A stretch of 64,000 nt of DNA from a virus, in IMG/VR virus record IMGVR_UViG_3300033553_000842, positions 9,142-73,141 of that record. One strand, given 5' to 3'. The translations under genes were made by a program, and so were the position numbers. Each line of letters starts with the position of its first letter. The stretch's first letter is position 1. The notes under the pieces were generated by a model. It was not told where the DNA came from and ran no database searches. It saw nothing but the letters and a program-made list of their open reading frames with translations. Positions 15,729-45,802 of this stretch are shown here, piece after piece.

Positions 15729-15732
15729 TGCT

Positions 15733-15760: not shown

Positions 15761-15798
15761 TTCCCAGTTAACCAAAGTTGTAAAGTGAACCACTCATA

Positions 15799-16917: not shown

Positions 16918-16931
16918 GAAAGGACTGAACC

Positions 16932-17351: not shown

Positions 17352-17363
17352 GGAGAACCCCAG

Positions 17364-18551
17364 ATGAAAGATCTCATCGATCTGAAGAAACGTCCGGTCG
17401 AGGAAGTCATCGCTGGCCTCCAATCGGACAGCCGTGGTACTTCCACGGAAGCCGGCACTGCCCTGGTGAACGCTGCAAAAGACCACGGTCTGAACCTGCG
17501 TGATTACCTGACCCTGGCTGTCGACACCCGCGCTGGCGAGTTTGCGGAGCAAGCGCATAACGCCAAATTGAGCGGCTATGAACTGGCTGTTGCTGCCTTG
17601 GGTCTACCCTCGCGCAACGACTTCAACGAAGGCGTTCTGTTGCAGGCGTCGTCCGAGAGCTTCCAGAAATACCCCGGTACCCGGGCGATGTTCCCTGAAG
17701 TGATCGACGATATGTTGCGCTGGAAGGACCGTCAGGACACGCTGGAAACAGTCGCGCCCCTGCTGTCGCAATCCCGCACAATCACCGGCACCGAACTGTT
17801 GTCGACGGTTGTCCTGGACGATAGCTCGGAACGCGGTACCCAGACCGTGCCTGAGCTCTCGAACATCCCAGTTCGTACCATCCGCACCAGCCAACAGTCG
17901 GTGCAGATGTTCAAGCATGGCTCGGCCTACCGGACTTCCTACGAGTTCAACCGCCGCGCCACGCTCGACATCCTGACGCCCTACGCGACCCGCGTTGCGC
18001 GTGAGCTGGAAATCAGCAAGGTCAAGGCCGCGACGAATGTCCTCATCAATGGTGATGGCGTGAACGCAGCTGCAACCAGTGAGAACATCACCGCCTATGG
18101 CGGCGATCTGACCGGTGGTAAGACCCTGCAGCACAACTACAAGGCTCTGGCCAAGTGGTTGATGAAGATGGCCAAGGACATGGTTCCTGCTGACGTGATC
18201 GTAGGCAACTACGACATGTTCGTTGAACTGCTGTTCATGTTCACCCCCAACCTGGCCTCGGACAAGAACGAAGCCCGCGAACTGGCCATGTCCGGTGCCC
18301 CAGGTGTGAACCTGCAGCTGCCGATCATGAACAACGCGGTTCAGTTCGTGCTGTCCAGCGGTATGCCTGCGGGCAAACTGATGGCCTTCAACCGTGGTGA
18401 AACTCTGGAAGAGCTGATCGAAGCTGGTTCGATCATCTCCGAGAGCGAGAACGCGATCCGCAACCAGTCGATCACTTATGTCCGCACAGAAACCTCCGGT
18501 TTCCGTCTGGCCTTCGGTGACACGCGCCGGATCCTCGACACCACAGCGTAA
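17364..18551 (+). CDS. Major capsid protein
   Basis: 395 aa with AAGGAG RBS, biased codon usage, followed by a strong terminator. Confidence 0.85.
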   Translation: MKDLIDLKKRPVEEVIAGLQSDSRGTSTEAGTALVNAAKDHGLNLRDYLTLAVDTRAGEFAEQAHNAKLSGYELAVAALGLPSRNDFNEGVLLQASSESFQKYPGTRAMFPEVIDDMLRWKDRQDTLETVAPLLSQSRTITGTELLSTVVLDDSSERGTQTVPELSNIPVRTIRTSQQSVQMFKHGSAYRTSYEFNRRATLDILTPYATRVARELEISKVKAATNVLINGDGVNAAATSENITAYGGDLTGGKTLQHNYKALAKWLMKMAKDMVPADVIVGNYDMFVELLFMFTPNLASDKNEARELAMSGAPGVNLQLPIMNNAVQFVLSSGMPAGKLMAFNRGETLEELIEAGSIISESENAIRNQSITYVRTETSGFRLAFGDTRRILDTTA

Positions 18552-18573
18552 GGCTTGACCTAGCACCCTTAAC

Positions 18574-18607
18574 GGGCCCGCTCACCAGGGGTGGGCGGGC
18601 CCTTTTT
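18574..18607 (+). terminator. Rho-independent terminator
   Basis: GGGCCCGCTCACC-AGG-GGTGGGCGGGCCC-TTTTT. Confidence 0.9.
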
Positions 18608-18626
18608 CATTCTGATGGAGATAGAA

Positions 18627-18917
18627 ATGAAACTCATCGCAAAGACCACCGGGGCGTTCATGTTGATCGACCCTTATACTGGAGACGAGCTGGACGCGAC
18701 CCGCCCCTCAGTCGTGACCCAGTCCCCCTTCATTGAACAGCGCAGTGCCGCGGGCCAGATCAAAGTTCTGGAAACAGATCTGTCCAATGACGCGACCGAC
18801 GAGGATTTCCTCGAGTTCTGGAAAGAGAACCAGAAAAGCGCCGTAGATGCCTACCTCTCAGCCCTGTCGCCAGATCCTGAGCCGAAGAAGAAAGCTGCTC
18901 CAGCGAAGAAAGACTAA
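18627..18917 (+). CDS. Hypothetical virion-associated protein
   Basis: ATG at 18627 with GGAG RBS. Confidence 0.75.
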   Translation: MKLIAKTTGAFMLIDPYTGDELDATRPSVVTQSPFIEQRSAAGQIKVLETDLSNDATDEDFLEFWKENQKSAVDAYLSALSPDPEPKKKAAPAKKD

Positions 18918-29902: not shown

Positions 29903-30182
29903 AACCACCAACCTGGCCGAAGATCCAAGCAACGAGTTCGAGTTCGATCCGCAGGATCTAAAGAACGCTTGGGGGACATGGCACACGCATCCCGTGACCT
30001 CCTCGAACCTGTCGATACCAGACTACCATTTCTTCAAGTCGTGGGGAAATTTGGTTCACTTCATCATTTGTTTAGACGATGTAGCATGCTATACAACAAT
30101 TGAAGATTACTTGGTGGTTATCAATGAAGCGGACGATTTATCTCCACGGCTATTTGAAGGACTTACATCCAGAGCCGATTAA
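29796..30182 (+). CDS. JAB/MPN domain protein (gpK N-half-like)
   Basis: ERCGII, N.A..P...F and WHTHP...LS..D motifs. Confidence 0.8.
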   Translation: MLKFSEIQELKTSLIGLWKPSVERCGIITADREIIETTNLAEDPSNEFEFDPQDLKNAWGTWHTHPVTSSNLSIPDYHFFKSWGNLVHFIICLDDVACYTTIEDYLVVINEADDLSPRLFEGLTSRAD

Positions 30183-31371
30183 GGTTGAAGCAACGACGAT
30201 AGCCGAGGCTCTGCGTGTCCTCGAGCAGATTCCGGAACTCAAACCGGAGCACGGACCTGGGCACCCTGTCCGCATCGACGGAGTGCTGACCGACATTCAA
30301 CTGTTCGCTAACAACGACACGTTAGATGAAATCCACATCCGACCTCAGGTTGGGGGCGCGGGTGGCCGCGGAGGTTTGACCCAGATCCTGCTCGGGGTTG
30401 TTCTTATCGGGGTCTCCCTCGCCCTTGGCCCCGCGGGTACTGCTATAATGGGCACTTGGATCACCAATTCCACCTTGATGATGGCCGGCGCGGGTCTTGT
30501 CCTGGGTGGTCTGCTACAGATGATGCTGCCTAAACCGGAGGCACTTGGGGAGGAAGAGAAATCCCAGTATCTCCCCCCAACAACCAACACGGTAGCAGTG
30601 GGCACTCCAATTCCTATGGTCTTTGGAGCCCGACTGGTCGGGGGCCAAATCCTCTCTCTGGACAGCGATGCTAAGCTCGTCACTTCAGATACATCCGCGG
30701 GGACTCCGTCTGTCCCACAGCTCCCCCAAGGATCTACTGCGGAGGAGACCCGGGCGTATCACGCCAGATATGGACTGGGAGAGTTTGCCTCAGGGGCTTG
30801 GGGATATGAGACTTTCAAAATCGCTGCCAGCGCTCAAGATACACTCTTCAGGTTAGTAATCTCCAACGCTCTCAATATCTCGGCCAGGGGGTACACCCCC
30901 ACGGTGGAACCTTTTGAGTTGCTGACCCTTTTACGGGGGGCTCAAGGCCCTCGCGGGCTACCCATCAAGTATCAAACCAGGTTCACGGTCCCCACCTCTG
31001 GGGTATACGCGTTCAAGAACGATAGCACCTACCCGGTCAAGGTCCTCATCGACGGTGTAGAAGCCGCGACCCATAATCTGACCGCAGGGACTCTCGTGAG
31101 TATCGAGGTCGTGGTCCTTTTTGGGTATGAGTTACAGACCGACCAGATCTTCAATTTGCAGTACCGAATTGCCGCTGGGGCTTGGGCCCCCATCACCAAC
31201 CTGGTGGGGGCTGGGGATCCGTTCCCGCCCGGAGAAGTGAACGTCCGGGACAGTCTTTTTGTAGAATATGACAAGACCCCCCTGTCGGACGGACTTAGCC
31301 CTATCAGACCAGTGTTCGCCTCTCCGGTCGCCTCCCCCAGCAACGTCCCGACCAGTGAATGGAGACCATAA
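30124..31371 (+). CDS. Tail assembly protein gpI-like with C-terminal extension
   Basis: Ubiquitin-like N-terminus ending GGAGG; hydrophobic helices; G.PIP.VFG...VGG; extra beta domain. Confidence 0.8.
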   Translation: MKRTIYLHGYLKDLHPEPIKVEATTIAEALRVLEQIPELKPEHGPGHPVRIDGVLTDIQLFANNDTLDEIHIRPQVGGAGGRGGLTQILLGVVLIGVSLALGPAGTAIMGTWITNSTLMMAGAGLVLGGLLQMMLPKPEALGEEEKSQYLPPTTNTVAVGTPIPMVFGARLVGGQILSLDSDAKLVTSDTSAGTPSVPQLPQGSTAEETRAYHARYGLGEFASGAWGYETFKIAASAQDTLFRLVISNALNISARGYTPTVEPFELLTLLRGAQGPRGLPIKYQTRFTVPTSGVYAFKNDSTYPVKVLIDGVEAATHNLTAGTLVSIEVVVLFGYELQTDQIFNLQYRIAAGAWAPITNLVGAGDPFPPGEVNVRDSLFVEYDKTPLSDGLSPIRPVFASPVASPSNVPTSEWRP

Positions 31372-34300
31372 GTGAATAAGGTCTTGCCTAAAGGCGCAGG
31401 GGGGGGCCCAAAGCCCCCTACGGTTCACGCCGTCACATACGTCTCTGAGGATATTTTTGAGATCAACCTAGGCGTTTGCGTGGGTCCAATTGCTGGCCTC
31501 TACGCAGGACCTCGTGCGTTCTATCTTGGGGATACGCCCCTGACGTCCCCCACAGGGGAAAACAACTTCGATCCGTTCGAGCTTCACGTCCACAACGGGG
31601 CCGATGTTGCCACCCCGGTGCATAACGCACTTGGAGGAATCTCCTCAAGCGAAAGTGTCAGCGTCCAGCTGGGCTATCTGACCCCCGTGGTCCGTGAAAC
31701 TGATGCTGGCCTGCGTAACCAGATTGACGTCCTCGAGATTCGTCTGTTTATTTCCCAACTGGTCAACAACACCTCGAGTGGGGATATCCTGAAAACCGAC
31801 ATCTCGGTTGATCTAGAATATCGCGAGAAGGGGACAACCACCTGGCTCCCGTTCATCGGGGACAACAAAACCTGGACTTACAACGGACGGATCGGGGGGG
31901 CGGTCAAAGAGTTCCGCCGGGTGGTCCCACGTATTAACGCCGACTGGGAACTTCGGGTTACCAAAAGTCTCGACGACGACACCACAAATGGGGTCTACCG
32001 GGATGTTTCCTGGGAGAGTTTCCAGTCTGTCATCCAAGAAGACAAGGCCTACAACAATACGGTTATTGTTCGAGGTCTCTCTGCGGCCAGTGACCAGTTG
32101 AACTCGGTACCCAACATGGCGGGGGTTTGGCGCGGCTTGATTGTCCAAGTCCCCTCCAACTATGATCCTGTAACCCGCTACTACGACGGGGTCTGGGATG
32201 GGTCATTCAAACTGGCCTATACCGATAACCCCGTATGGTGTCTCTATTATCTCCTTATGGATCCGGTGAACGGAGCCAGAGCCTACTTCCCGGGCCTGCA
32301 AACGGATCGTTTCAGTTTTTATGAGGCAGCACAGTGGTGTGACGGATTGGTCCCCCGCGGAAACACAGGCACGTATCAACCTCGGTACACCTACAACGAT
32401 CTGATCTCTCAGGTACGTCAGGGCCGTCAGACGTTGCAATACCTTGCAGGTCTGTTCGGTGGGGTAATTGCCGAAGACCTGGCGGGGACAATTATCCTGA
32501 AGGTTGACAAGCCGTCGGCCGTCACTCAGATCTTTGGCCCGGAGAGTGTGAGCTCTGAAGGTTTTTCCTATAGCTACACTGACATTGAAGGCCGGCCTAA
32601 CCAGAGCAAGGTCCAGTTTACAAACCCAGATCTGCAATGGGACAATGACCAGCGGCTCGTTGAGATCCAAGAGTACATCGACCGCAACGGCCTGACTGTG
32701 GACGACTACACCGCTGTAGGGTGTATCGACGAATACGAAGCCCAGCGGAGGGCTTACCTACGTCTTCTTCAGGCCAACACCGAAACCACCATGGTCAGTT
32801 TCTCGACCGCACGTCAGGGACTGCTGCTCGAGCCTTATGATGTGATCGGCATTGCCGACCCGGCCCAGAACTGGGGTCTGTCTGGTCGTGTGAAATCAGT
32901 ATCCGGGACCACCATCACGCTGCGGGATGCTCTAACAGTCCCCGCCCAGGTGGGTCTGACCCTCCAGGTTCAAACACCAACAGGTATCGAAACCCTGACC
33001 GTTCAATCCGCGACGGCCACAACAACCTCTCTCGAGATCACTGTCGGGACCTGGCCTACGAACGCCCCCGATCGAGCTCAGTTCAGCCTTGAGGATAACG
33101 TCACCTCAACTGGTTTGGTGAAGCCCTTCCGGATTCTGTCGATCGAGCCTAACGAGGAAGAGTCCTCCCTTGCGAACATCTCAGCGATTGAGGTGAACCC
33201 AAACAAGCATTCCGACGCGGACAACCTGACCCTAACCCAGGTGGTGGACTACACGGGGGTCTCAGCAATCCCCCGGGCCCCTCAAAACATTCGGATCGTT
33301 TCTGGCACCTCTGAGTCACTGACACACCAAGATGGTACGATCGAGAACCGGATCCTCGTAACTTGGGATGCCCCCTCGACCTACAAAATCAGAGTGTACT
33401 ACCGCCGGGAGGAATCTGACGAGTTCCAGGTAATCACCGCGTCCCAGAACCAAGTTTACATCCCAATGGCCAAGGCTGGGGAGCCCTATCTCATTGAGTT
33501 CAGGGGTGAGAATGAGTTCGGGATTCCCTTCCAAAAACTCACCCCGATCCTTCATCAAGTCACGGGTAAACGGGTTGATCTTCAGACCCCCACGAACTGG
33601 GTGGGGATCCCCGGGGTTCGCAGTGTAACCCTCGATGGTCCTGACAGCACCCTAAGAGACTTTGCTTATTTCGAAGTCTGGGCGGGTGAAGCAGGGTCTG
33701 TATTTGAAAACGCCTCAAAGATTGGCCAGGTAGCAGCCAGCCTCTTTACATATACCCTACCCGCAGCTTCTCTGTTTGCGAGGTACTGGGTGTTGGAAGT
33801 CGATACCTCCGGCAACCCTTCAGCCCCGTCGAATGCCATAGATGTTTTACCTGAGCCGGTTAAATCTACCGAGATTGAAGCCGCTGTCACTGAGCAGATC
33901 GAGGCTACTAGAGCTAAAGCCGACGCAGTCAGAGCGGACCACGATGCGTTGATCCTCAATTTCACCAAGACCAATCTTGGCGAACTTGAGGTGGACTATA
34001 ACGCAACACAAGCTGCTGCCAATGACGCTCTTGTAGCAGCGACCGCTTCTGAAGCCGACAGGCTCCTGGCTGAAGCCGCAGCTAATGTCGCATCCGTATC
34101 CGAGACAAACGCAGCGGCTAGCTCTATTTCTGCAAGTGCCTCAGAAGCCTTTGCTCTTGCTGGAGCTGTCGACGCCACTGATGCAGCAAATGCAGCAAAT
34201 GCTTCTGAGACAAACGCAGCGGCTAGTGAGACAAACGCAGCGAACAGCTCTATTTCTGCAAATGCTTCAGAAGCATTTGCCCTTGCTGGCGCTGTAGATG

Positions 34301-36207
34301 CCACTGATGCCAGCGTTATTGCTGAAAACGCCAAGGTTGAAAGCATCGCAGCGCGAAATCAATCCGAGACATATCAAACAGCGTCCCTCGCAGCGCAGGC
34401 TGCATCCGAGCTTGCCCGTAATGAAGCGCAAACACAAGCCACCAGCGCGGCTGGAAGCGCTACGGCATCCGCAGGTCATGCGCAAACAGCTCAGGCGTCA
34501 GAAACTGCATCAGGCTCTAATGCAACCGCTGCACAGGCGGCGCAAGTGTCGGCAGAAGCAGCTCGCGATCAATCGTCGAATACTGCAACCGCATCTTCCG
34601 CAAGCGCAGCCGCAGCCGCTGCGTCTGAAACCGCAGCGGGGTCTAGTGCAGCCGCGACCGCTCTGGATCGACAGGCAGCTCAGACGGCCCGCGCAGGAGC
34701 TGAAACAGCCGAGACAAATGCTGCAACCAGTGAAACAAACGCAAGTGGATCGGCTGCTACCGCGACGACCGAAGCCAACAATGCGGCAACATCAGAGACC
34801 AACGCGGGGGCTAGCGCAACTGCTGCCGCAGGTTCTGCTTCAACCGCTTCCACAAAGGCGACAGAGGCTGGCCAGGACGCCACAGCCGCCAACGCCGCAA
34901 AGCTGGCAGCTCAGACGGCCCGCGCAGGAGCCGAAACAGCAGAATCTAACGCCGCAACCAGCGAGACAAGCGCGGCAGGGTCCGCCGCAAGCGCCAGCAG
35001 CAGTGCAACAAATGCTGCAACCAGTGAGAATAACGCAGGCTCTAGTGCAACAGCGGCAGCGTCCAGCGCCTCTCTGGCCTCTACAAAGGCTACTGAATCC
35101 TCTCAATCGGCCACAGCCGCCAACACTGCAAAGCTGAACGCGGAAACAGCCCGCGCAGGAGCTGAAACAGCCGAGACAAATGCAGCAACCAGCGAGACAA
35201 GTGCGGCAGGGTCTGCGGCAACAGCTAGCACGTCCGCGAGCAACTCCGCCGCCAGTGAGACCGCGGCGGGTGGTCACGCCACTGCCGCGGCTACGAGTGC
35301 GTCGGTGGCGACGACCAAAGCAGGTGAAGCTTCACAGAGCGCGACGACCGCAACAACCCAGGCTAACACTGCGACAACCAAAGCAGGAGAGGCCTCCACA
35401 TCAGCCACGAATGCAGCGACTTCTGAAACAGGAGCAAATAATTCTGCTGCTTCGGCACTGATCTCCGAGAATGCTGCGGCCACCAGTGAAACTGCATCTG
35501 GTATTCAAGCCACAGCGTCTGCAAACAGTGCAGGCGTTGCGACAACAAAAGCGACAGAAGCCGCTCAATCGGCTTCCGCTGCTGACGTAAGCAAGACGGC
35601 CGCAGAAACTGCAAAATCAAATGCGGAGTCTTCTGAAACTGCCGCTGCACTAAGTGCTTCCAATGCTTCTGGATCAGAGGCAGCCGCAGGCACATCTGAG
35701 ACAAATGCTGCTGCCTCCGAAACTGCATCAGGAAGCAGCGCCACTGCGGCTGCATCGAGCGCCTCACTGGCGTCAACCAAGGCGACAGAGGCTGGCCAGG
35801 ACGCCACGGCGGCGAACGCGTCAAGATTGGCTGCTGAGACAGCCGAGTCAAACGCCAGCGTGTCCGAAGCCAGTGCTGCGCAAAGCTCAACCGACGCAAC
35901 CGGCTCAGCCTCCAGTGCACAGACTTCCAGCGTTCTGTCCTCTGTGACCTTTGATGAAAGCCTGAAGGCTGCGCGTGAGGGAACCAGAGCCGGAATGGCA
36001 ACTGTTTCAGGAGCCGGCAATGGCCAGTTTCAGCAAGGCTGGACCGGCTGGATCACAATCACCGGTCTGACGACCAACTTTTCCAACAGAACCGAGATCG
36101 AGACAGGCGTTCTGTTTGGTGACGATGGCGCGACCATCGCCTCCATCGATCTTAACCTTGAACTTACACAAATCGTCCGAGCGGGCGAAGGGGATATAGT
36201 AGTATGA
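31372..36207 (+). CDS. Tail tip / host specificity protein J-like, N-terminal part with Ala/Ser/Thr repeat stalk
   Basis: KGAGGG start, VPSNYDP..RYY.G.WDGSFK.AYTDNP.W core, FN3-like region, 77-aa repeats. Confidence 0.9.
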   Translation: MNKVLPKGAGGGPKPPTVHAVTYVSEDIFEINLGVCVGPIAGLYAGPRAFYLGDTPLTSPTGENNFDPFELHVHNGADVATPVHNALGGISSSESVSVQLGYLTPVVRETDAGLRNQIDVLEIRLFISQLVNNTSSGDILKTDISVDLEYREKGTTTWLPFIGDNKTWTYNGRIGGAVKEFRRVVPRINADWELRVTKSLDDDTTNGVYRDVSWESFQSVIQEDKAYNNTVIVRGLSAASDQLNSVPNMAGVWRGLIVQVPSNYDPVTRYYDGVWDGSFKLAYTDNPVWCLYYLLMDPVNGARAYFPGLQTDRFSFYEAAQWCDGLVPRGNTGTYQPRYTYNDLISQVRQGRQTLQYLAGLFGGVIAEDLAGTIILKVDKPSAVTQIFGPESVSSEGFSYSYTDIEGRPNQSKVQFTNPDLQWDNDQRLVEIQEYIDRNGLTVDDYTAVGCIDEYEAQRRAYLRLLQANTETTMVSFSTARQGLLLEPYDVIGIADPAQNWGLSGRVKSVSGTTITLRDALTVPAQVGLTLQVQTPTGIETLTVQSATATTTSLEITVGTWPTNAPDRAQFSLEDNVTSTGLVKPFRILSIEPNEEESSLANISAIEVNPNKHSDADNLTLTQVVDYTGVSAIPRAPQNIRIVSGTSESLTHQDGTIENRILVTWDAPSTYKIRVYYRREESDEFQVITASQNQVYIPMAKAGEPYLIEFRGENEFGIPFQKLTPILHQVTGKRVDLQTPTNWVGIPGVRSVTLDGPDSTLRDFAYFEVWAGEAGSVFENASKIGQVAASLFTYTLPAASLFARYWVLEVDTSGNPSAPSNAIDVLPEPVKSTEIEAAVTEQIEATRAKADAVRADHDALILNFTKTNLGELEVDYNATQAAANDALVAATASEADRLLAEAAANVASVSETNAAASSISASASEAFALAGAVDATDAANAANASETNAAASETNAANSSISANASEAFALAGAVDATDASVIAENAKVESIAARNQSETYQTASLAAQAASELARNEAQTQATSAAGSATASAGHAQTAQASETASGSNATAAQAAQVSAEAARDQSSNTATASSASAAAAAASETAAGSSAAATALDRQAAQTARAGAETAETNAATSETNASGSAATATTEANNAATSETNAGASATAAAGSASTASTKATEAGQDATAANAAKLAAQTARAGAETAESNAATSETSAAGSAASASSSATNAATSENNAGSSATAAASSASLASTKATESSQSATAANTAKLNAETARAGAETAETNAATSETSAAGSAATASTSASNSAASETAAGGHATAAATSASVATTKAGEASQSATTATTQANTATTKAGEASTSATNAATSETGANNSAASALISENAAATSETASGIQATASANSAGVATTKATEAAQSASAADVSKTAAETAKSNAESSETAAALSASNASGSEAAAGTSETNAAASETASGSSATAAASSASLASTKATEAGQDATAANASRLAAETAESNASVSEASAAQSSTDATGSASSAQTSSVLSSVTFDESLKAAREGTRAGMATVSGAGNGQFQQGWTGWITITGLTTNFSNRTEIETGVLFGDDGATIASIDLNLELTQIVRAGEGDIVV
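34681..35900 (+). repeat. 231-bp (77-codon) degenerate tandem repeat array
   Basis: Equivalent positions at 34681, 34912, 35143, 35374, 35605 and 35836. Confidence 0.85.
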
Positions 36208-37838
36208 GCAACATCAATTCAGCCCTCGTAAAAGCCGCAGTCGATGCTCTTACGTCCAAGGTAAACGGCGTCATCGCCACAGCCACAGACAGCGTATCAG
36301 CCGCCGCCCTGGCGCTTGGCTACCGTGACACGACGCTGGCCTACAAAAACCAGGCTGACGCAGCAGCCGCTCTGGCACTGCAGTACAAGAACGACGTTGC
36401 CAGTGCGATTGTATATCAGGACTTGTCTTCGATCGCCCTGTCGAAAGGCATCACCGCAACCGCCATGTGCATCGACACATCGCCAAACCCGCCGCTGTCA
36501 GTGCAGCGGGCGACAAGCTGGTTTGCTGAGTTGGGGCCAATGCCCGCGACAAAGGTGGTGCTTGTTACCGTGTTTTCGGTCACGATTTATGACGGTGATG
36601 ATCCGTCCCATCCTGTGTGGGCGACGTTTAATAGCGGCGTTTCAAAAATGCTTTTTAGAGGTGATTTTAGCTGCGTTTCTCTTGAAAATGGAATTCTCTC
36701 TGTAGGGTCTAACAACACAAACGGCGGCGTAAGCGTAGTTGACTTTTCACAGGATATGCGCACCCTTTATTACGGCGCAGAGACTTATGTATTCAATGGC
36801 AACATATCTGAAAGAAACATTGACAAAGGGCAGACCTTAAAAACAGCGACGGGTGGGATTGTAAACCGAGTAATCAACGCAGTCGCAATGCACGTCTACG
36901 ATGACGCACCTGTTGATCCTGTATCCGGTCTGCAAATCCCGACGATTGCTGTTGGTACGGCTGGCGGTGTGAGCGTTATTCTGGATGATGGGACTGTTGT
37001 TGATAGTGGTAGCACTTTCCCTGCTGACAACATTATTGTGACGGAACAAGGTCTCTGGTGGACAGCATCGGGAATAACTTTGCATTTTGCAACGTGGTCT
37101 GACATTGAGGCGGGCGATGGTTTTGGTGATGTAATCGCTCATATTTTTGGTGGTAGTGGACTGTTTCGGCAGCAAACCCGTTTCGATCGTTTGATTAACC
37201 TTGGCTCTAATCAGCTTGCATGGACATCGGCAGCTTCATATTCCAATACAGTACGGGGTTTGCAGAAGCGTTTGCTTAACTACGCTGACCAGACCAAAGG
37301 CATGTCGGCTCTTATCACATCCTCCTACAACACAGGCTGGATGGTCGGAGACATCAAAGGAGCATTCCTTTCCAGCACGGACACGGCGAGTTTGGTTGCG
37401 AGTGAACAGGTCACGAATGGTACGTTTGATGTTGACCTGTCGGGGTGGACGCAAACAGGCAATAACGCAAATAATTTTTGGGAATTTAGCGCCGGAAAAG
37501 CCCGCGTGGTTTCTGACGGTGGTTTTACACCACTGCAGCAGACAACCAGTTTGGTTGTTGGCAAAAGGTACTGTCTGACCGTTGATGTCACAAAAACCGC
37601 AGGCTCGGTTAAAGTAGGTACAAATTCTACTGTCGATAATATTTCATCTTCCCTTGCTGCCGGAGCTAACAGCATCTTTTTTACGGCCAGTGCAACAACA
37701 CTATACTTTTCGCGGGTTCCAGGTGTCGTCGATTGCACCATCGACAACGTATCCCTCAAACTAGCCGACGCTGACCGCTCAGTGAACGCCAACGGCCTAA
37801 TCGTCAACGGCACAATCACGCGTACACCGGTGGCTTGA
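36204..37838 (+). CDS. Tail fibre / lectin protein, N-terminal part (CBM-like domain)
   Basis: Beta-rich; VTNGTFDVDLSGW...IDNVSLK CBM signature; ends ...GTITRTPVA. Confidence 0.8.
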   Translation: MSNINSALVKAAVDALTSKVNGVIATATDSVSAAALALGYRDTTLAYKNQADAAAALALQYKNDVASAIVYQDLSSIALSKGITATAMCIDTSPNPPLSVQRATSWFAELGPMPATKVVLVTVFSVTIYDGDDPSHPVWATFNSGVSKMLFRGDFSCVSLENGILSVGSNNTNGGVSVVDFSQDMRTLYYGAETYVFNGNISERNIDKGQTLKTATGGIVNRVINAVAMHVYDDAPVDPVSGLQIPTIAVGTAGGVSVILDDGTVVDSGSTFPADNIIVTEQGLWWTASGITLHFATWSDIEAGDGFGDVIAHIFGGSGLFRQQTRFDRLINLGSNQLAWTSAASYSNTVRGLQKRLLNYADQTKGMSALITSSYNTGWMVGDIKGAFLSSTDTASLVASEQVTNGTFDVDLSGWTQTGNNANNFWEFSAGKARVVSDGGFTPLQQTTSLVVGKRYCLTVDVTKTAGSVKVGTNSTVDNISSSLAAGANSIFFTASATTLYFSRVPGVVDCTIDNVSLKLADADRSVNANGLIVNGTITRTPVA

Positions 37839-37840
37839 TT

Positions 37841-38530
37841 ATGAAACGTCAATATAAACGCATGACCAAAGAGGACGAAGATTTCATTGTGGCAAACGAC
37901 GCCACCATGTCTATCAGCCAGATGTGCGAGGCTCTTGGGAGAGCCAAGGGAACTGTCGATAAGGCTCGTAGACGCCTCGGTCTGAGGAAAGACTTTCACA
38001 CCCCTTGGACTGATGCAGAAGCTGCTGTCGTTAAGGCCAATCCAACGATGGGAAACTCTGAAATAGCGGCCCTACTCGAAGGACGCACTGCTAACAATGT
38101 CAGCAGTTGGCGCTATCACAATGGTCTACGAATGGAGCGATCCTGTGCAAAATGCGGATGCGAGTATTTTCATAAATCTAGTGCCTCTAAATTGTGTGGT
38201 GAGTGTTGGGTTTCGGGGGCATTGCCCAATAGCGCAAATCCTCTTGTTCGCTTTGGGTACTATCGTGATGGAGCTAAAAGCCGAGCCATCGAGTTCGACC
38301 TGAGCGAACAAGAGTTCTTCTCGTTTTGGGGTAAGTCCTGCACCTACTGCGGAGCAGATATTGAGGGCATTGGGCTAGACCGTATTGACTCAAAGACAGG
38401 GTACAAGATGAGCAACGTCACGCCATGTTGCGGAAGATGTAATGAAATGAAGATGGCAGATACCGTTGACCAATGGAAAGCGCAGATGACCCGCATCTTA
38501 TCACATATGGAGAAAAACAATGACTGCTGA
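37841..38530 (+). mobile_element. Free-standing HNH-type (His-Me finger) homing endonuclease
   Basis: CTYCG...GLDRIDS..GY...NV.PCC..CN.MK; N-terminal HTH-like repeats and CxxC pairs. Confidence 0.85.
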
Positions 38531-39254
38531 ACTTGTCGCCTATTCGGGGTTCTCTGCAACCAACTATCTCGAACAACCGTACAACCCTGACCTTGATTTC
38601 GGCACAGGTGATTTCTGTGTGATGGGGTGGGCAACGGCATCTGCCGCCTCTGATTGGCTTCTTGATCGGAAGACGCCTGGAGACAATGCCAGCGTGGGGT
38701 TTGACTTGTATCAGTCTGATGGGGATACCAACGGCGGTAATTTGAGATTTGGCACAAGGAGTAGTATTGGCGGTACTCTTACCACCACAGACGTAGGTGA
38801 GGTGACTTCAAAGTTTACCTATTTCGCAGTTGCTCGAAAAGGTGGTGTCGTTTCAACCTACATTAACGGGACTATTACTGGGTCAAATACAAACACCACT
38901 GATTTGACAAACATCTCGGCTAATACATTTATCGGCCTTCGTTCTAATTTGAGCGCTCAATATCTCAATGGCTCACTCGCCCTCATACGCATCGGCGCAA
39001 CAGCCCCAAGCCCTGACCAAATCCGCAAAATCTACAATGACGAGAAAGCCCTGTTCCAACCCAACGCCGCTTGTACCTTGTTCGGCACATCGGACGCGGT
39101 GACAGCACTGGCCCATGACGAAATCACAGGGCTGGATCACGCGGGTACATCGGCTGGACGGTCTGACTTCTCTGGCTTGATCCGAGTGGGCAACACTACC
39201 ACGCCCGTCACAACGGCAATCGCCGCAAACAATTCTCTGATACTGGAACAGTAA
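38520..39254 (+). CDS. LamG/ConA-like lectin domain protein, C-terminal part of the interrupted fibre gene
   Basis: DFGTGDFCVMGW, YFAVARKGG..STYING, FIG, LNGSL..IRI; GGAG RBS inside the HNH gene. Confidence 0.85.
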   Translation: MTAELVAYSGFSATNYLEQPYNPDLDFGTGDFCVMGWATASAASDWLLDRKTPGDNASVGFDLYQSDGDTNGGNLRFGTRSSIGGTLTTTDVGEVTSKFTYFAVARKGGVVSTYINGTITGSNTNTTDLTNISANTFIGLRSNLSAQYLNGSLALIRIGATAPSPDQIRKIYNDEKALFQPNAACTLFGTSDAVTALAHDEITGLDHAGTSAGRSDFSGLIRVGNTTTPVTTAIAANNSLILEQ

Positions 39255-39255
39255 C

Positions 39256-39906
39256 ATGACCGTAAGAATAGCAAAACCGGCGATTAACCTGCGTGAAGAA
39301 CTGGTCAGGCTGAGAACCCTGCCAACGTATCGTGAGGAAGAGTTTTATTTCGACAGCTTGGTCGAGAATGGGACTTTTGACAGCGATACTATTTGGACAC
39401 TAACGGGGGGTTCAATAACGGGTGGAGAATATGTCGGACCCGCCTCTGGTGCTCAAGGTGTCCAACAGAATAGCAAAACGCCCCTTGGGACGAAAAGGTA
39501 CAAGGTGCAGTTTGACGCCAGTGTTGCAGCGTCTGTAACCACCGTGTTTTTACGCCTTGGGTCTAATACTAATGTTTTAGATTGGACGGTTGGCACCACC
39601 CCAACAACTTTCAGCGGGGTTGCTACGGCTGGCGGGGTTAGTGAACTGATTTATCTTCTTTCTGGTGGTGCCAACACCCTGCGGCTAGACAATATCACAC
39701 TCTTCGAGGTCGATGCCAACGGCGACGTAATCCACACAATGAAGCAAGGCTGGTTGCCCAAATACTTTTTCGAAGACGGGCTTAAAATCCGTGAAGGTGT
39801 GGCGCATGACTATGAAGCCTATACGGACGGTTTCAGGTGGTTCGTCAAGCCAAGCGTGACACCCGGCGCGTTGACAGAAACCTGCATCATTGGAGTGAAA
39901 GCATGA
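39256..39906 (+). CDS. CBM-like virion protein
   Basis: MTVRIAKPAINLRE start; LVENGTFDSD..W and LDNITL. Confidence 0.75.
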   Translation: MTVRIAKPAINLREELVRLRTLPTYREEEFYFDSLVENGTFDSDTIWTLTGGSITGGEYVGPASGAQGVQQNSKTPLGTKRYKVQFDASVAASVTTVFLRLGSNTNVLDWTVGTTPTTFSGVATAGGVSELIYLLSGGANTLRLDNITLFEVDANGDVIHTMKQGWLPKYFFEDGLKIREGVAHDYEAYTDGFRWFVKPSVTPGALTETCIIGVKA

Positions 39907-40451
39907 ATATCCTGAACCTGAAACTCGGTGATGCGCCCAAGACCGCCGCAACAATCGAGAAGGCCAAGGCCCGGTACATGAACGCAATGGGTTGGACAGC
40001 GACAAAGCGTGACGACGCCATGAATGAAGGGGCATTCCTTTTGACAGGGTACATCCAGACAGCGCCAATGTTTGACAAAGCGATGGTGGACCTATCGCGG
40101 TTCGAACTTGATCTGGCTGAGACGTACCAGATCAACGCCTTCAATGCGCAGCTTGCCGCATATCGTGCTGCCAAGACACGTCTTGGACGGCATGTCCTTG
40201 CAGATGGTCAGCTTGAGGTCATAGAGGAGTTTGACCCTGAGACGGGTGAACCACTCACGGAACCCGTTGTCGTACAGCAAGCCATCGAACCCTTGGACGC
40301 AACTGTGGTCATCACCGAATATGACGAAGAAGGTGCGGCCATGGATTTCACGGTGGCGAACCCGCTGATCGCAATCGACGAGGCTCAACGTGACCATGCC
40401 CAATCTGTGATCGACGCGACCCCTGAAGGAGTGATCGCGTATGCCACTTGA
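39903..40451 (+). CDS. Hypothetical fibre-associated protein
   Basis: ATG at 39903 with GGAG RBS; NPLI.ID.A.R..AQSVIDATP C-terminus. Confidence 0.7.
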   Translation: MNILNLKLGDAPKTAATIEKAKARYMNAMGWTATKRDDAMNEGAFLLTGYIQTAPMFDKAMVDLSRFELDLAETYQINAFNAQLAAYRAAKTRLGRHVLADGQLEVIEEFDPETGEPLTEPVVVQQAIEPLDATVVITEYDEEGAAMDFTVANPLIAIDEAQRDHAQSVIDATPEGVIAYAT

Positions 40452-43209
40452 TTACACTGGGGTAGGAGCTGCACAGTTTGATGAACCGGCCACACTGGTC
40501 TGGGGTTCGTCCTTGCCTGTTCTGCCCGACACTGTGCTTCAGCTCACTCTGAGTGTCGCGAAGGTCAACGGGGCAAACGCCAGCATTGTCGCTGGACTGA
40601 TCTGCTATGACGAGACCGGCAATGACGTCGGTCAACTCCTGACCATCTCTGAGACCGTAAGCAGCGCAGACTGGCAAGAGTTTGTCCAGAGCTTCTCCGG
40701 CTGGCCCGCAGGTACAGTTTCGGTGCTGCAAGTGTTCCAGCATCAAACATCTGGCAGCACGATCCAGGTCGATGAGTTTTCCTATGAAGACGTGACGGCA
40801 GTGGTTGCCGCTGAAGCCGCCGTGATCTCGGCCCAGACAGCGACAACAAAAGCGACCGAAGCCGGGACGTCAGCCACGGCGGCTCAAAGCGAACGCGTTC
40901 TGGCTGAGACTGCCAGGTCGGGTGCAGAAACCGCAGAGACAAATGCCGCGGCATCTGAAACCAGTGCTTCTGGATCTTCCGCAGCCGCCTCGACCAGCGC
41001 CTCAAACGCAGCCAACAGCGCCACCCAGTCGGGCAACTCTGCAACGGCGGCAGCAAGTTCAGCCTCAACTGCTTCTACAAAGGCCACAGAGGCATCACAG
41101 GACGCCACAGCGGCGGCGTCAGAGCGCCTTGCAGCCGAGACTGCTCGATCTGGTGCAGAGAGCGCGGAGACGGGCGCTGTCACAGCAAAGAACACCTCAG
41201 AGAGCGCAGCGGCGACCGCCACTAGTAAAGCGACACTGGCCGCTCAAAGCGAAACCAATGCGGGAAACTCAGCTACCGCCGCAGCAGGAAGTGCATCTAC
41301 AGCAACAACCAAGGCCACAGAGGCATCACAGTCAGCTTCCACGGCCACAACGCAAGCCAACACGGCGACAACAAAGGCCGGAGAGGCGTCAACCTCTGCC
41401 AGCCAAGCAGCGACGTCAGCCACTAACGCTGATGGGTCCGCTTCCTCAGCCTCGACAAGCGTGACAAACGCGGCCAACAGTGAAACAGCAGCAGGTAACT
41501 CCGCCAGCGCTGCGGCGACCGATGCGTTCACTGCAACAACCAAAGCAGGCGAAGCATCAACCAGTGCAACTGCGGCCAACGCGGCTAAACTAGCTGCGCA
41601 GACGGCTCAATCTAATGCGGAAACCGCTGAAACGAATGCCGCAACGAGTGAGACAAACGCCAGTGGGTCTGCCTCCTCAGCCTCAACCAGTGCAACAAAC
41701 GCGGCCAACAGCAACACGGCCGCGGGCAACTCAGCCACAGCCGCTGCTAATTCAGCCTCAACTGCAACAACCAAAGCGAGCGAAGCCGGTACATCTGCTA
41801 CATCAGCGTCCACGTCAGCCAACACCGCGTCGACCAAAGCCGCTGAAGCTTCCACATCTGAGACAAACGCAGCGACCAGCGCCACGTCGGCTTCTGGATC
41901 TTCAGCTGCGGCCATCTCTGCCAAAGACACCGCTGTTGCTGTCGCCTCTCAAGGTGGAGGCGTTCTGTCTGACATGACGTTGCCCTACGGGGCAGGAAAA
42001 TGGGGTGCCTATTCTACAGGCCCAACACTTACCGCGAGTGAAATTTACCCCACAGGCAATACCTGGACTTGGAACCTGGCGGCAAACGCCAGTGGTGGGG
42101 CAGTAATTTCGCAAATCAGTCCGCTCTGGACAGGTGTTAAATTTGCCGACGGTTTTCGTGTCGAAGTAACCTACAAGTTGATCTCTGGTACATTGCAAGG
42201 CGCAGGTGTCCTGCTCGATTTCTATCCCGCAACCGGAAGTCACCAGAGGGTTCAGAAGTCTCTCGAAGAGATGACCCCTGGAACGGTAATCACTGGCGCT
42301 GTCATGCAGGCCAGTGCTGTGTTTGATAAACCCGCAGGCATCACCACGTCGGGCGGTGTCGGGGTCTATTTCATGGCCAGCGCGTCGCTCTTCGGTGCAC
42401 AGGACGCCAAGAACATCAAGATTTACAGCATCCAGGTCTATCCGATTTCGGTCACTGAGGCGTCTGTCAAAGAACAGGCATCAACTATTGTCGATCTTCA
42501 GGGGAACGCGTCCGCTGGGTACCTGATCAAAGCGCAAGCCGGTTCAGAGGTGTCGCTTCTGGATCTGATCGCAGCTGATGGCGCTGCGGGGGCTGTTTCG
42601 GTGGCCAAGATCAGCGCCACAAGCATCCTGCTGGATGGTACAGTCACAGCCGATCATATCAACGTGACGTCACTAGACGCAATCTCAGCCAATTTGGGAA
42701 CCATCCAAGTAGGTAGCGCGAATATAGCCGACGCGGCGATCACCAATGCCAAGATCGGTGATACGATCCAATCTAACGACTTCGTAGCTGGATCAGCTGG
42801 CTGGCGTATTCTGAAAACTGGCTCTGCTGAGTTTAACGGTGTCGTTATTTCCCGTGATCAGGTCGTTGGCTCAGGCACTGCCTCCATCCCAACTACACAA
42901 TGTTCCCAGCAGGGCTTTTTCACAAATGATGGCGTGTTTTGGATCGACACAGGTCTATCAACTTCGGCATGGACCGGTAGCGATGCAAGTTACAGCGCCG
43001 CTGTTGGACGTAATGGAAGTAACGGAACAATATTTAACACCAACAATGCCACCACTACGGAGCGACAGTGGGGATGGGCTGCGGAGGTAATCCCCATCAC
43101 AAGATGGACCGGGGGAGCGACGTTGTTTATAAAGGTTGAGCTTTGGACAAAAAACGTAAGCGCAGCTTCAGGTTTCATACTTGATTGGAAGGTTAAGAAG
43201 GTAACATGA
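40441..43209 (+). CDS. Tail tip / fibre protein carrying the J-like C-terminal region
   Basis: Partial CBM, 77-aa repeats, then ANIADAAITNAKIGDTIQSNDFVAGSAGWRI.K.GSAEFN typical of J C-termini. Confidence 0.85.
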   Translation: MPLDYTGVGAAQFDEPATLVWGSSLPVLPDTVLQLTLSVAKVNGANASIVAGLICYDETGNDVGQLLTISETVSSADWQEFVQSFSGWPAGTVSVLQVFQHQTSGSTIQVDEFSYEDVTAVVAAEAAVISAQTATTKATEAGTSATAAQSERVLAETARSGAETAETNAAASETSASGSSAAASTSASNAANSATQSGNSATAAASSASTASTKATEASQDATAAASERLAAETARSGAESAETGAVTAKNTSESAAATATSKATLAAQSETNAGNSATAAAGSASTATTKATEASQSASTATTQANTATTKAGEASTSASQAATSATNADGSASSASTSVTNAANSETAAGNSASAAATDAFTATTKAGEASTSATAANAAKLAAQTAQSNAETAETNAATSETNASGSASSASTSATNAANSNTAAGNSATAAANSASTATTKASEAGTSATSASTSANTASTKAAEASTSETNAATSATSASGSSAAAISAKDTAVAVASQGGGVLSDMTLPYGAGKWGAYSTGPTLTASEIYPTGNTWTWNLAANASGGAVISQISPLWTGVKFADGFRVEVTYKLISGTLQGAGVLLDFYPATGSHQRVQKSLEEMTPGTVITGAVMQASAVFDKPAGITTSGGVGVYFMASASLFGAQDAKNIKIYSIQVYPISVTEASVKEQASTIVDLQGNASAGYLIKAQAGSEVSLLDLIAADGAAGAVSVAKISATSILLDGTVTADHINVTSLDAISANLGTIQVGSANIADAAITNAKIGDTIQSNDFVAGSAGWRILKTGSAEFNGVVISRDQVVGSGTASIPTTQCSQQGFFTNDGVFWIDTGLSTSAWTGSDASYSAAVGRNGSNGTIFNTNNATTTERQWGWAAEVIPITRWTGGATLFIKVELWTKNVSAASGFILDWKVKKVT
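40906..41930 (+). repeat. Second 231-bp degenerate tandem repeat array
   Basis: Equivalent positions at 40906, 41137, 41368, 41599 and 41830. Confidence 0.85.
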
Positions 43210-43595
43210 TTTCTTATTTCATCAGAGAAGACGGTGAAGTCGTCAAAGTTGTGGATCAAGATAATGGACTATCTGCCATGGAAAGTTGGGCCATCGACAA
43301 CACGGACTATGATCTCGTTAAACCTGAAGCAGACGCGTACCTTGCCCGCCCCTTGTCACCGGAGCCATCAGGCTCTGGTGCGACATGGTCTGTTGCTGCC
43401 TGCCCAGATGGAACCATCATTGCAGTATGGGACTCGGTTACACACGAAGAGCTGACAACATATACAACTGGTCCGGACGAAACCGTACCACTAAATTTCG
43501 TAGACGCAGGAACATACACTGTTCGCGTTCAAAGTCCCGCCCCTGCGCGTGAAGTGCGCAAACGCCTTGAGGTGACAGATGCAGATCTCGCGTAA
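43206..43595 (+). CDS. Hypothetical fibre-associated protein
   Basis: ATGA overlap; F..AGTYTVRV Ig-like end. Confidence 0.7.
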   Translation: MISYFIREDGEVVKVVDQDNGLSAMESWAIDNTDYDLVKPEADAYLARPLSPEPSGSGATWSVAACPDGTIIAVWDSVTHEELTTYTTGPDETVPLNFVDAGTYTVRVQSPAPAREVRKRLEVTDADLA

Positions 43596-43995
43596 CCCCG
43601 CCGTCTTAGCTGCCAAACTGGAGGCAGATCGCTCAGAGATTGCCGCAGCAATTACCGCCGAAAGAGATCGTCGAATTGCCGCAGGCTTCACTCACAACGG
43701 GGTGAATTACGATTTTGACGAGGCTTCTAAAAGTCGTATCACTGGCGCTGCAACTCTCGCGGGCTTCGCTCTGAGTAGTGGAGCCCTCGCAGGCGATCTG
43801 CTCTGGCATGGCGGCACTCAACCGTTCGTCTGGGTGGCTGCTGATAATTCTCTGGTCTCTATGGACGCGCAGACCTGCTTTGCTTTCGGACAAGCCGCCG
43901 CAGCGCATGAAACGCGGCATATCTTCTGGGCGAGGGCATTAAAGGACGCAGACCCGATCCCTGAAGACTTCACCAATGACATCCATTGGCAGTAA
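43579..43995 (+). CDS. DUF4376-like tail fibre assembly protein
   Basis: AERDRRIAAGF..NG..YD.D..S..RI, WVAADN, C-terminal W. Confidence 0.75.
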   Translation: MQISRNPAVLAAKLEADRSEIAAAITAERDRRIAAGFTHNGVNYDFDEASKSRITGAATLAGFALSSGALAGDLLWHGGTQPFVWVAADNSLVSMDAQTCFAFGQAAAAHETRHIFWARALKDADPIPEDFTNDIHWQ

Positions 43996-44111
43996 CCCCC
44001 ACCCGGGAATTTATTAAATCAACCCCTAATCTAGGGTAGTTTTATACAGTAGTGTCGTAGTCAATACTGCCGTTTCAGGAGTTAATCCTGTGAGCAACAG
44101 GATAGGACTAC

Positions 44112-44687
44112 ATGACAAGACTAGAAAAACTAAGTTCCACCATTAAGCAACTGGTCATTATCGGCACGGCCGTTTCAGCCGTTTTTATGACCTTGTTCAC
44201 GACCACCGTGTTTCTCTTTGCCGACCTGGCTAAGAGTGAGGCTCGGCAGTTCCTGGGTATCGACGGGTTGGCCACAGCGTCCGACCTGGATAGCCTCAGA
44301 GAAGAGGTCATAAAGTTCACGGGTCGATCCGGGGTCCTTTATATGTCCCCCGGTAGCTCCTATGTCGAAGAGCCGATTAATTGGGGGGACAATATTAAAG
44401 CCCACCTAGTTGTACAAAGCACGGAACGTGGCGCGAAGTGTGAATTTTCTGACGGCCAAAGCCTTTTCTCGGATCAAAGAAACATCCCCTTCCCCGGGCC
44501 ACCTGTTAACCTCGTCCGTCAAATCGGGATTGAGCCTAAGGAATTATTCCTCGACCTCAGTCATCCAGTGGCACTGGTACCAGGGCGTATCAAATTCACC
44601 ATCTCTATAAGAGCCACCTGTGAAGGTAAGACTGAGTTCCAGGAGACTAGGCCGATCTATTTCTACCTCGAAGAAAAGAAGACCTGA
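44112..44687 (+). CDS. Membrane-anchored hypothetical protein
   Basis: AGGA RBS; single N-terminal hydrophobic helix. Confidence 0.75.
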   Translation: MTRLEKLSSTIKQLVIIGTAVSAVFMTLFTTTVFLFADLAKSEARQFLGIDGLATASDLDSLREEVIKFTGRSGVLYMSPGSSYVEEPINWGDNIKAHLVVQSTERGAKCEFSDGQSLFSDQRNIPFPGPPVNLVRQIGIEPKELFLDLSHPVALVPGRIKFTISIRATCEGKTEFQETRPIYFYLEEKKT

Positions 44688-44689
44688 CC

Positions 44690-45802
44690 GTGGAGCTCAC
44701 CCCCCGTCAGCTGGAGGTCCTGGAGCTCAAGAAAAAGGGCCTAACCCAGAGAGAGATTGCAGCGGAGCTGGGGGTTTCCAGGTGGGCGGTTAGAAGTAGG
44801 CTCGAAGGGGCGGAACGTAAAAACCACAACGACCCTGCGGTCCAAGCGGCAATGGAAGTAGCTAACACCGCACTGGTCCCCAACATGCTTTGGGTCAAGA
44901 CCAAGGGTGAGGACGGGACCCGCTATTCGGTCCAGCTGAAACCTCCGAGGGAAACCGATCGGGACGTTATGGCAGAGGTCCACGAGGCATTCCAAAATAT
45001 TCCCAAGGCCCCGAAGATTGGACACCCCGAGAGCGTCAATACCGATCTGATGACGATGTACCCTCTGTTTGACGTCCATCTGGGGCTACGCTCTCTGGCC
45101 TCAGTCTCGGGTGAGGACATGGATCTCGAGAAGGCCCAGACCAGGTTGCTGCGAGGCGCGGCCCGGTTGATATCCAAGGCCCCCAACTCGTCTAAGGCCC
45201 TGCTGGTCAACGGAGGTGACTTCACCCACGCGGATGATGACGAAAACGCCACACCAGCCAGTAAGCACGTTCTCGACGTCGACTCCCGGAACTATACCAC
45301 GATCACGGTTGGCGTTGAGTTGATCGCGCTGTTCATCGAGATGCTGCTGCAGAAACATGAGACAGTGGACTATATCAGCGTCCCGGGCAATCACGATCCA
45401 AAGAACTGGGTCTCTATCATGGTGGGGCTTTACTACCGGTTCCTGGGCCACAACCGGGTGAAGATCGAGCTCAATCCGATCGAGTTCTCCGTCTATGTCT
45501 GGGGCCAGACCCTGATCGCAGTCCACCATGGCCACAGGCGCAAAGAAGCAGATCTCATCATGTTCTTTGCCGCGGAATACGCCGCGGTCTGGGGCGCGGC
45601 CCTGCACCGGTATTTGTTCACGGGTCACTATCACAGCCGGGAGGCCAAGCGGTACCCGGGGATGTACTGGGAACGCATGGAACCCGTCTGTCCTCGGGAC
45701 CACTACGCCGCCTCATCGGCTTATGACCAGGCGGCGTCGATGACGTGCATAACATTCCATCGGGAAACCGGTGAGGAAGATAGATCAAGGGTGAAGCTAT
45801 GA
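44690..45802 (+). CDS. HTH-fused calcineurin-like metallophosphoesterase
   Basis: LTPRQ...REIAAELGVS HTH; DVH.G, GGD, GNHD, HHGH, GHYH motifs. Confidence 0.85.
   Translation: MELTPRQLEVLELKKKGLTQREIAAELGVSRWAVRSRLEGAERKNHNDPAVQAAMEVANTALVPNMLWVKTKGEDGTRYSVQLKPPRETDRDVMAEVHEAFQNIPKAPKIGHPESVNTDLMTMYPLFDVHLGLRSLASVSGEDMDLEKAQTRLLRGAARLISKAPNSSKALLVNGGDFTHADDDENATPASKHVLDVDSRNYTTITVGVELIALFIEMLLQKHETVDYISVPGNHDPKNWVSIMVGLYYRFLGHNRVKIELNPIEFSVYVWGQTLIAVHHGHRRKEADLIMFFAAEYAAVWGAALHRYLFTGHYHSREAKRYPGMYWERMEPVCPRDHYAASSAYDQAASMTCITFHRETGEEDRSRVKL

Follow-up and report, generated by a model that had tools for sequence, protein, structure and literature searches.

A prophage J-type tail fibre probably encoded in two pieces, broken within one carbohydrate-binding-module-like domain and separated by a fibre gene apparently cut by an HNH gene

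Is the central tail fibre of a lambda-like prophage made here as two polypeptides that meet inside a single domain? The question is raised by a stretch of viral DNA of 64,000 nucleotides (nt), called the window throughout, which was taken from a provirus record of 73 kb in IMG/VR (IMGVR_UViG_3300033553_000842). At positions 31372–43209 of the window, two genes with features of the central tail fibre gene J are separated by five others. An earlier note, made from the sequence alone, had proposed that one ancestral J gene was split here, inside a carbohydrate-binding module (CBM), by the insertion of a lectin cassette, and that the two halves may reassemble. The coordinates it gave for the open reading frames (ORFs) were all confirmed. 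Its reading of the two genes as parts of one J, of the break as falling in one domain, and of a lectin gene as cut by an HNH gene was supported by our analysis, but its view of the cassette as the cause of the split was not.

The two genes are ORF1 (31372–36207, 1611 amino acids (aa)) and ORF7 (40441–43209, 922 aa), both on the plus strand, as are all genes described below. ORF1 has the position expected of a J gene. The region is a lambda-like tail module in which the tape measure gene (23049–28517) is followed, up to 31371, by genes matching minor tail and tail assembly PHROGs (M/L/K/I-like), and ORF1 comes next. It consists of a core (approximately aa 1–825), a repeat stalk rich in alanine, serine and threonine (approximately aa 870–1535), a CBM-like opening and a short extension. 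The gene matched phrog_31 'central tail fiber J' (E 7.5e-132) and PF24801 FNIII-A_GpJ (E 1.5e-12). Its aa 25–672 matched residues 20–648 of the lambda J chain 8iyk_J (E 1.4e-50), and aa 1–825 also matched an F2-pyocin fibre. Neither PF09327 nor any other C-terminal J family was found in ORF1 (Pfam, E ≤ 0.01). ORF1 is thus a J core with a stalk and without the J C-terminus, as the earlier note had described it.

A C-terminus of this type was found in ORF7, which comprises a head (aa 1–120), a repeat stalk (approximately aa 121–500), a middle domain, a Phage_Tail_Tip region and a C-terminal domain. PF09327 (Phage_Tail_Tip) was matched by aa 676–812 (E 4.6e-12; score 46.3 bits, cut-off 22), and therefore lies only in ORF7 and not in the same chain as the J core. 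The part at aa 740–812 also matched residues 1045–1117 of the 1148-aa chain 23gd_D of the J-like protein gp24 (E 3.1e-10). The head motifs and the C-terminal motif that had been quoted from ORF7 are present, and its stalk resumes that of ORF1: the repeat period is 231 nt in both stalks, and across 269 aa their sequences are up to 65% identical. Three Protein Data Bank (PDB) chains, 25vf_A, 9l9p_S and 23gd_D, are common to the matches of the ORF1 N-terminal part (three of its five) and those of the ORF7 C-terminal part (all three), and therefore single chains covering both ends of a J exist. The matched chains, which are J-like or tail-fibre proteins, possess neither the stalk of ORF1 and ORF7 nor the CBM-like domain. 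Taken from sequence comparison, these matches support the view that ORF1 and ORF7 jointly hold parts of one J-type fibre, ORF1 as its N-terminal and ORF7 as its C-terminal piece.

The break between the pieces was located by single-chain relatives of the sequence on either side of it. The last part of ORF1 before the break, here called the J tail (aa 1549–1588, 36016–36135), corresponds to the first 40 or so aa of a CBM-like jelly roll and carries an opening of the form GN..F..GW.GW. The motif GNGQFQQGWTGW, on which the earlier note had relied, is indeed encoded at 36016–36051 in the ORF1 frame, 63 aa upstream of the stop codon. The tail is followed by a post-break extension of 23 aa plus the stop codon (36136–36207). 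The remaining 70% or so of the jelly roll is found in the ORF7 head (40441–40800). An exhaustive search with the head (aa 1–120) among 1.84 billion representatives of 50%-identity clusters yielded 13 matches. In one of them, P0014 (1341 aa), the domain is internal, at residues 472–588, and is preceded by the GN..F..GW.GW opening. With phmmer, the ORF1 tail (aa 1537–1588) aligned to residues 423–474 of P0014 and the ORF7 head (aa 4–126) to residues 472–594. The two corresponding pieces of a second split locus, described below, aligned in the same manner to another single-chain protein, P0016 (1759 aa; tail to residues 409–457, head to residues 461–579). Therefore, the two pieces abut on single-chain proteins, and the start of ORF7 lies within 3 residues of the homologous position. 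A search with a profile of the J tail matched P0014, P0016 and P0015, the last being a J-like protein of 730 aa with PF13550 that ends in the GN..F..GW.GW motif plus 52 aa. P0014 had itself been included in the profile and its score is thus circular; P0016 and P0015 were outside it. The claim that J is split inside a CBM-like domain is supported by these abutting alignments, and the break appears to fall within a single domain.

The predicted fold of the head agrees with this assignment. Modelled alone with AlphaFold2, it gave an eight-stranded sandwich with a mean predicted local distance difference test (pLDDT) score of 89.9, in which residues 1–7 were disordered. The ten best PDB matches of this model in Foldseek were CBM22, CBM16 and CBM4 modules and one newer CBM, with alignments covering 95–121 columns of modules 137–159 aa long. 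For CBM22, CBM16 and CBM4, E-values were 1.9e-5 to 1e-4 and template modelling (TM) scores by query 0.53–0.62; the head is 22–39 aa shorter than these modules (142–159 aa). The mycobacteriophage central fibre 8zdp was matched as well (TM by query 0.69). The head thus shows the beta-sandwich of a CBM4/9/16/22-like jelly roll, with only part of the module covered. At E ≤ 1, neither the ORF7 head nor the tail region of ORF1 matched any Pfam family, CBM families included. The J tail folded poorly by itself (pLDDT 41, with only 5 alignment rows). The earlier note had set against its own proposal the case in which each ORF end folds as a complete domain, and here the outcome is mixed, as the head folds but the tail does not. 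A complex prediction of the tail with the head, run without controls, scored 0.02 where the mark was 0.32, and we draw nothing from it on binding in either direction.

The split was found to be conserved. In ten of the 13 head matches, namely ORF7 and nine others (P0003–P0010 and P0012, 394–647 aa), the domain starts at residue 1 or 2; the rest comprise P0014, a generic CBM repeat protein and what is probably a chance match. In the alignment of heads, 8 of the 15 invariant columns fall within the first 16 residues, a segment that takes in the residues disordered when the head is modelled alone. One of the nine proteins, P0010, could be placed in its genomic context, a prophage locus in a Paracoccus metagenome-assembled genome (L002). 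Its head is 31% identical to that of ORF7. Gene order at L002 is tape measure and distal tail genes, a 752-aa J-like gene (phrog_5616, phrog_31 and PF13550) that ends in the GN..F..GW.GW motif plus approximately 55 aa, a 753-aa gene, and then the head-first fibre P0010. No significant similarity was detected between the 753-aa gene and ORF2, the first gene of the window's cassette. When ORF1 was compared with the L002 J by BLASTP, only the tail aligned (aa 1549–1585, 43% identity, E 3e-6), and the tail was likewise the sole alignable part in the comparison with P0015.

Because nine other clusters share the start residue and L002 has the same split with another gene between the pieces, the break appears to be old and conserved, and to predate the present cassette. 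In the head-domain tree, P0014 and P0016 group with P0009 and P0010 (support 100/100), and a single change between the split and the single-chain form suffices; its direction, fission or fusion, is not resolved by the tree. The earlier proposal that the present cassette caused the split is not supported as it stands, in view of the shared start, the unrelated gene at L002 and this one-event tree. Judged from the two loci, the gap between the J pieces appears to behave as a slot with changing occupants.

Further loci were sought in several collections. No related loci were found among viral contigs with the head, the tail or the alignment of either, or among metagenome contigs with the head alignment. 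The tail alignment recovered from metagenome contigs a single candidate (L008), which was rejected as an irrelevant M23 peptidase with a whole CBM. GenBank phages contained no DNA or protein match for the head or the tail. A sample of 401 genomes from the family of L002 yielded one strong match to the head alignment (G001 itself) and one weak match (E 8.4e-4), as well as one match to ORF2.

A second break lies within the gap. ORF2 (36204–37838, 544 aa) and ORF4 (38520–39254, 244 aa) appear to be the N-terminal and C-terminal pieces of one laminin G (LamG) tail-fibre gene of approximately 815 aa, and the space between them is occupied by ORF3 (37835–38530, 231 aa). ORF4 matched Laminin_G_3 (PF13385, E 2.7e-11, 44.3 bits against a gathering score of 27.6). 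ORF3 is a free-standing gene that matched HNH and endonuclease VII PHROGs (phrog_3322, phrog_3118 and phrog_1035; E 7e-12 to 5e-11) and no Pfam family. Of the 8000 candidates scored in the search with ORF2, 1026 were homologues at E ≤ 0.001, and the following counts refer to the 119 that were listed. Most of these are approximately 750–900 aa long, and several come from Rhodobacterales by source name. In P0018 (815 aa), residues 1–571 align to ORF2 aa 1–544 (41% identity) and residues 574–815 to ORF4 aa 3–244. ORF2-like and ORF4-like parts were found in one chain in 110 of the 119; in 104 of those 110, the ORF2 alignment reaches the last 10 residues of ORF2, the ORF4 alignment starts within the first 10 residues of ORF4, and the two are 3–4 residues apart. 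The remaining nine chains (318–802 aa) have the ORF2-like part alone, and most of them are short and may hence be fragments. None of the 119 contained an ORF3-like part.

No intron family was detected at E ≤ 1 over 30000–45000 (Rfam). Nor is there room for intein halves: no extra residues are present at the ORF2 end or the ORF4 start, and the pieces lie only 3–4 residues apart on their homologues. ORF2 and ORF4 are in the same reading frame, with 681 nt (227 codons) from the ORF2 stop to the ORF4 start. The earlier claim that an HNH gene interrupts a lectin gene is thus borne out by relatives that are contiguous and lack an ORF3-like part, and by this comparison ORF2 and ORF4 are evidently one LamG fibre gene cut by ORF3. 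Reassembly of the ORF2 and ORF4 products, and cleavage of an uninterrupted allele by the ORF3 product, are putative.

The gap is completed by ORF5 (39256–39906, 216 aa), which encodes a viral and possibly CBM-like protein, and ORF6 (39903–40451), to which no kind could be assigned. ORF6 most likely starts at ATG 39903, giving 182 aa, rather than at GTG 39837. All junctions from ORF1 to ORF7 are tight. The stop codon of ORF1 overlaps the start of ORF2 by 4 nt (ATGA). The next five junctions, in order, are overlaps of 4 and 11 nt, a gap of 1 nt, an overlap at ATGA and one of 11 nt. The description of five tightly coupled ORFs between the J pieces is therefore accurate. That they are mostly lectin or CBM genes holds in part: ORF4 is a Laminin_G_3 protein, and the Atlas model of ORF5 resembles CBM_4_9 domains (TM approximately 0.5), which we take as a lead only. 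Neither ORF5 nor the ORF2 C-terminus had a Pfam match, and profile comparison detected no similarity of either to the ORF7 head.

The GC content at third codon positions (GC3) is 0.51–0.52 in ORF2–ORF5, compared with 0.63–0.65 in the upstream tail genes; the ORF7 head falls within 0.60–0.62. No direct or inverted repeats were found flanking the cassette. A related arrangement is present in a locus from a genome sampled out of the L002 family (L006). There, a single ORF2/4-like gene comes first, then an ORF5-like N-terminus, an ORF6-like ORF and a homologue of the window's ORF at 44112–44687. The counterpart of ORF5 covers its first 47 aa and lies directly 3' of the ORF2/4-like gene, and the homologue of ORF6, after the ORF5-like ORF, is 46% identical. 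A giant ORF (more than 3585 aa) precedes this module, and neither J nor ORF7 is present. Because most of the cassette genes are found there in the same order, in an unrelated phage setting, the comparison of gene orders suggests that ORF2–ORF6 travels as a unit.

How might the pieces work together? We propose that the central tail fibre of this prophage consists of two polypeptides. ORF1 would contribute the tail-tip J core, the long repeat stalk and the opening two to four strands of a CBM-like beta-sandwich; the other eight strands, further stalk and the Phage_Tail_Tip end that meets the host would come from ORF7. The ORF1 tail would complete the ORF7 head in trans, with one tail per head and three per trimer, such that ORF7 extends the J fibre. 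The gap between the J pieces would serve as a slot for other receptor-binding genes, occupied here by the LamG fibre module ORF2–ORF6, the first gene of which would have been cut into ORF2 and ORF4 by a free-standing HNH homing-type endonuclease gene. As a whole explanation, this combination of a two-polypeptide J joined in trans, an old conserved split, a slot and an HNH-cut module is in our view probable, and we hold it with moderate confidence. What is established directly is where exactly the two breaks lie, that single-chain relatives exist and that the split is conserved. From this we infer that both split proteins reassemble physically and that the gap acts as a slot. For J, the inference is drawn because the tail appears constrained in J proteins that are otherwise unalignable and the N-terminus of the head is its most conserved part; a constrained J tail is accompanied by a head-first fibre in both of the two loci with context. 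A broader formulation, in which the J proteins of a group of alphaproteobacterial prophages have a conserved split-beta-sandwich socket, the distal fibre is exchangeable by fragment complementation, and the gap is a landing slot for receptor-binding modules, including carriers of homing endonucleases, is offered tentatively.

Several observations weigh against the proposal. Binding of the tail to the head is putative, and the head, predicted as a confident eight-stranded sandwich by itself, may be stable without the tail. The 23-aa extension of ORF1 shows no likeness to the extensions of the L002 J and P0015, with approximately 98% of shuffles scoring as high, and such unlike post-break extensions (23–28 aa) fit read-through into inserted DNA as well as they fit a functional latch. 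The GC3 of ORF6 (0.60) is like that of the backbone rather than that of ORF2–ORF5. Genomic context is provided by two split loci only, the window and L002. The check for single-chain homologues, which the earlier note had recommended, was answered in part: P0014 and P0016 hold the whole CBM-like domain, but behind a non-J N-terminus, and because they have no J core either fission or fusion may have come first. No contiguous J protein with the CBM-like domain was found by the tail-profile search (four matches among 8000 scored candidates), and a search with the ORF1 tail region among proteins of 886–2820 aa returned only ORF1 itself.

A different history can be imagined, in which a past recombination joined a fibre module to J within the CBM-coding region, leaving the tail idle and ORF7 as an independent fibre that attaches via a different surface or with the help of other proteins. 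The confident fold of the head alone would fit this, as would the lack of conservation of the post-break extensions between the window and L002 and the shuffling of stalks and modules, of which the ORF6-like ORF that directly precedes the homologue of 44112–44687 in L006 is an instance. However, an idle remnant of 40 aa would be expected to decay at a head identity of approximately 30%. Instead, the tail is the best conserved part between J proteins that cannot otherwise be aligned and retains residues common to the single-chain forms, and within the head family conservation is highest at the N-terminus. We therefore regard such a relic as unlikely, though it deserves consideration beside the joining of two polypeptides in trans.

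Joining could also occur before the proteins are made, by deletion of the cassette in a subpopulation, by splicing or by ribosomal bypass, to yield a single-chain J. In favour of this, ORF1 and ORF7 are in the same reading frame, as are ORF2 and ORF4, but a common frame is expected by chance in one third of cases and the J pieces of L002 are in different frames. The absence of Rfam intron families over 30000–45000 and of repeats flanking the cassette also argues against it, as do the intervening ORFs, intact fibre genes that each have a start of their own, and the ribosome-binding site and ATG that ORF7 itself possesses two codons past an in-frame stop. No joint was seen in the contigs of two DNA sequencing runs, although rare variants drop out of contigs. 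We consider this very improbable. The same runs bear on whether a metagenome mis-join could have placed the cassette inside J. In both, the public Logan contigs break within the ORF1 stalk repeats, at 34692–35178, and the number of repeats is thus uncertain. Yet in each of the two runs one contig of 30,303 nt spans 35154–43500 and so both junctions (the runs possibly derive from the source sample and are then not independent), the independent genome L002 has the same split, and the gene overlaps at both junctions are clean. An assembly artefact is given next to no credence.

Some neighbouring features were recorded in addition. Upstream, the ORF at 30100–31371 (423 aa), which resembles tail assembly protein I, has its PHROG match at aa 9–191 only, and a C-terminal extension of approximately 230 aa is unexplained. 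Past 43209 lie small ORFs, one of which matches tail-fibre PHROGs, and then an exonuclease-like gene and an endolysin. The ORF with these matches (43579–43995, 138 aa) matches weakly (E 2e-10) and may encode a fibre accessory or assembly protein for ORF7. The 191-aa ORF at 44112–44687 has its homologue at positions 15287–15766 of L006, directly 3' of the ORF6-like ORF; viewed from the L006 module, ORF7 and the two small ORFs at 43206–43995 have the look of an insertion. The ORF at 44690–45802, which separates the tail genes from the endolysin, has a full-length match to a DNA repair exonuclease PHROG and weak sigma-factor or helix-turn-helix matches in its first 45 or so aa. Promoter and terminator scans gave hits at chance level only. 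A single RNA run contributed no sequence to the region, a result that is uninformative on expression. In L002, the head-first fibre is immediately followed by a 2486-aa ORF (11221–18681) with many tandem repeats of approximately 95 aa and a beta-helix-like N-terminal part, which may be another adhesin.

If the J pieces join via the split domain, a siphovirus would have in it a simple natural plug-and-socket through which its host-recognizing tail end could be exchanged. It would bear on the evolution of phage host range, and would place a structural protein among the few genes known to survive being cut in two. A full-text literature search found no published description of a J split or of an HNH-cut LamG fibre, which is weak evidence of absence.

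Among known systems, lambda J and J-like fibres (8iyk, 23gd and 25vf) resemble the J of the window in the N-terminal core, the gene position and the C-terminal motif of Phage_Tail_Tip type. They differ in being one chain, whereas here the core and the C-terminal domain are encoded by separate genes with 4.2 kb between them, and long repeat stalks and the split CBM-like domain intervene. End-to-end fibres of several gene products, such as the long tail fibre of T4 (gp34–gp37), are held together non-covalently, and their joints, as far as is known, lie between whole domains; by contrast, the joint proposed for J would cross one beta-sandwich, the two parts of which are continuous in relatives. 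The ORF7 head shares the predicted fold of CBM4, CBM16 and CBM22 modules, but has no Pfam CBM match and is shorter by 22–39 aa, and sugar binding is only putative.

The nuclease gene between gene pieces also has precedents. One is the type of fractured gene described in PMC2677866, which has split inteins and a homing endonuclease gene. The likeness is a gene in two pieces with a nuclease gene between them; the difference is that no intein halves are present here, ORF2 and ORF4 being 3–4 residues apart on homologues and ORF7 starting within 3 residues of the homologous position. We rejected a split-intein arrangement for J for the same reason, namely that its pieces abut on single-chain homologues, and the 23-aa extension of ORF1 has no counterpart at the ORF7 start. 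A closer parallel is the 'genes-in-pieces' arrangement of Aeromonas phage Aeh1, where nrdA is split by the HNH gene mobE; T4 mobA acts likewise (PMC2988022). Split-gene cases of this kind (PMC2988022, PMC10448857), in which the two resulting polypeptides have to reassemble, are Aeh1 nrdA with mobE, the T4 topoisomerase genes 39 and 60 with mobA, and genes 43A and 43B of phage 25. ORF2, ORF3 and ORF4 fit the Aeh1 pattern exactly: a free-standing endonuclease gene fills a gap, with neither intron nor intein, in a coding region that is contiguous in relatives. The outer split of J differs from this type in having no nuclease gene at its junctions. To date the effect has been described for enzymes of nucleotide metabolism and replication (PMC2988022). 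The gene cut in Aeh1 encodes such an enzyme of nucleotide or DNA metabolism, whereas the one cut in the window would encode a structural receptor-binding fibre, and the apparently HNH-cut LamG fibre would thus extend the genes-in-pieces effect to a receptor-binding protein of the virion.

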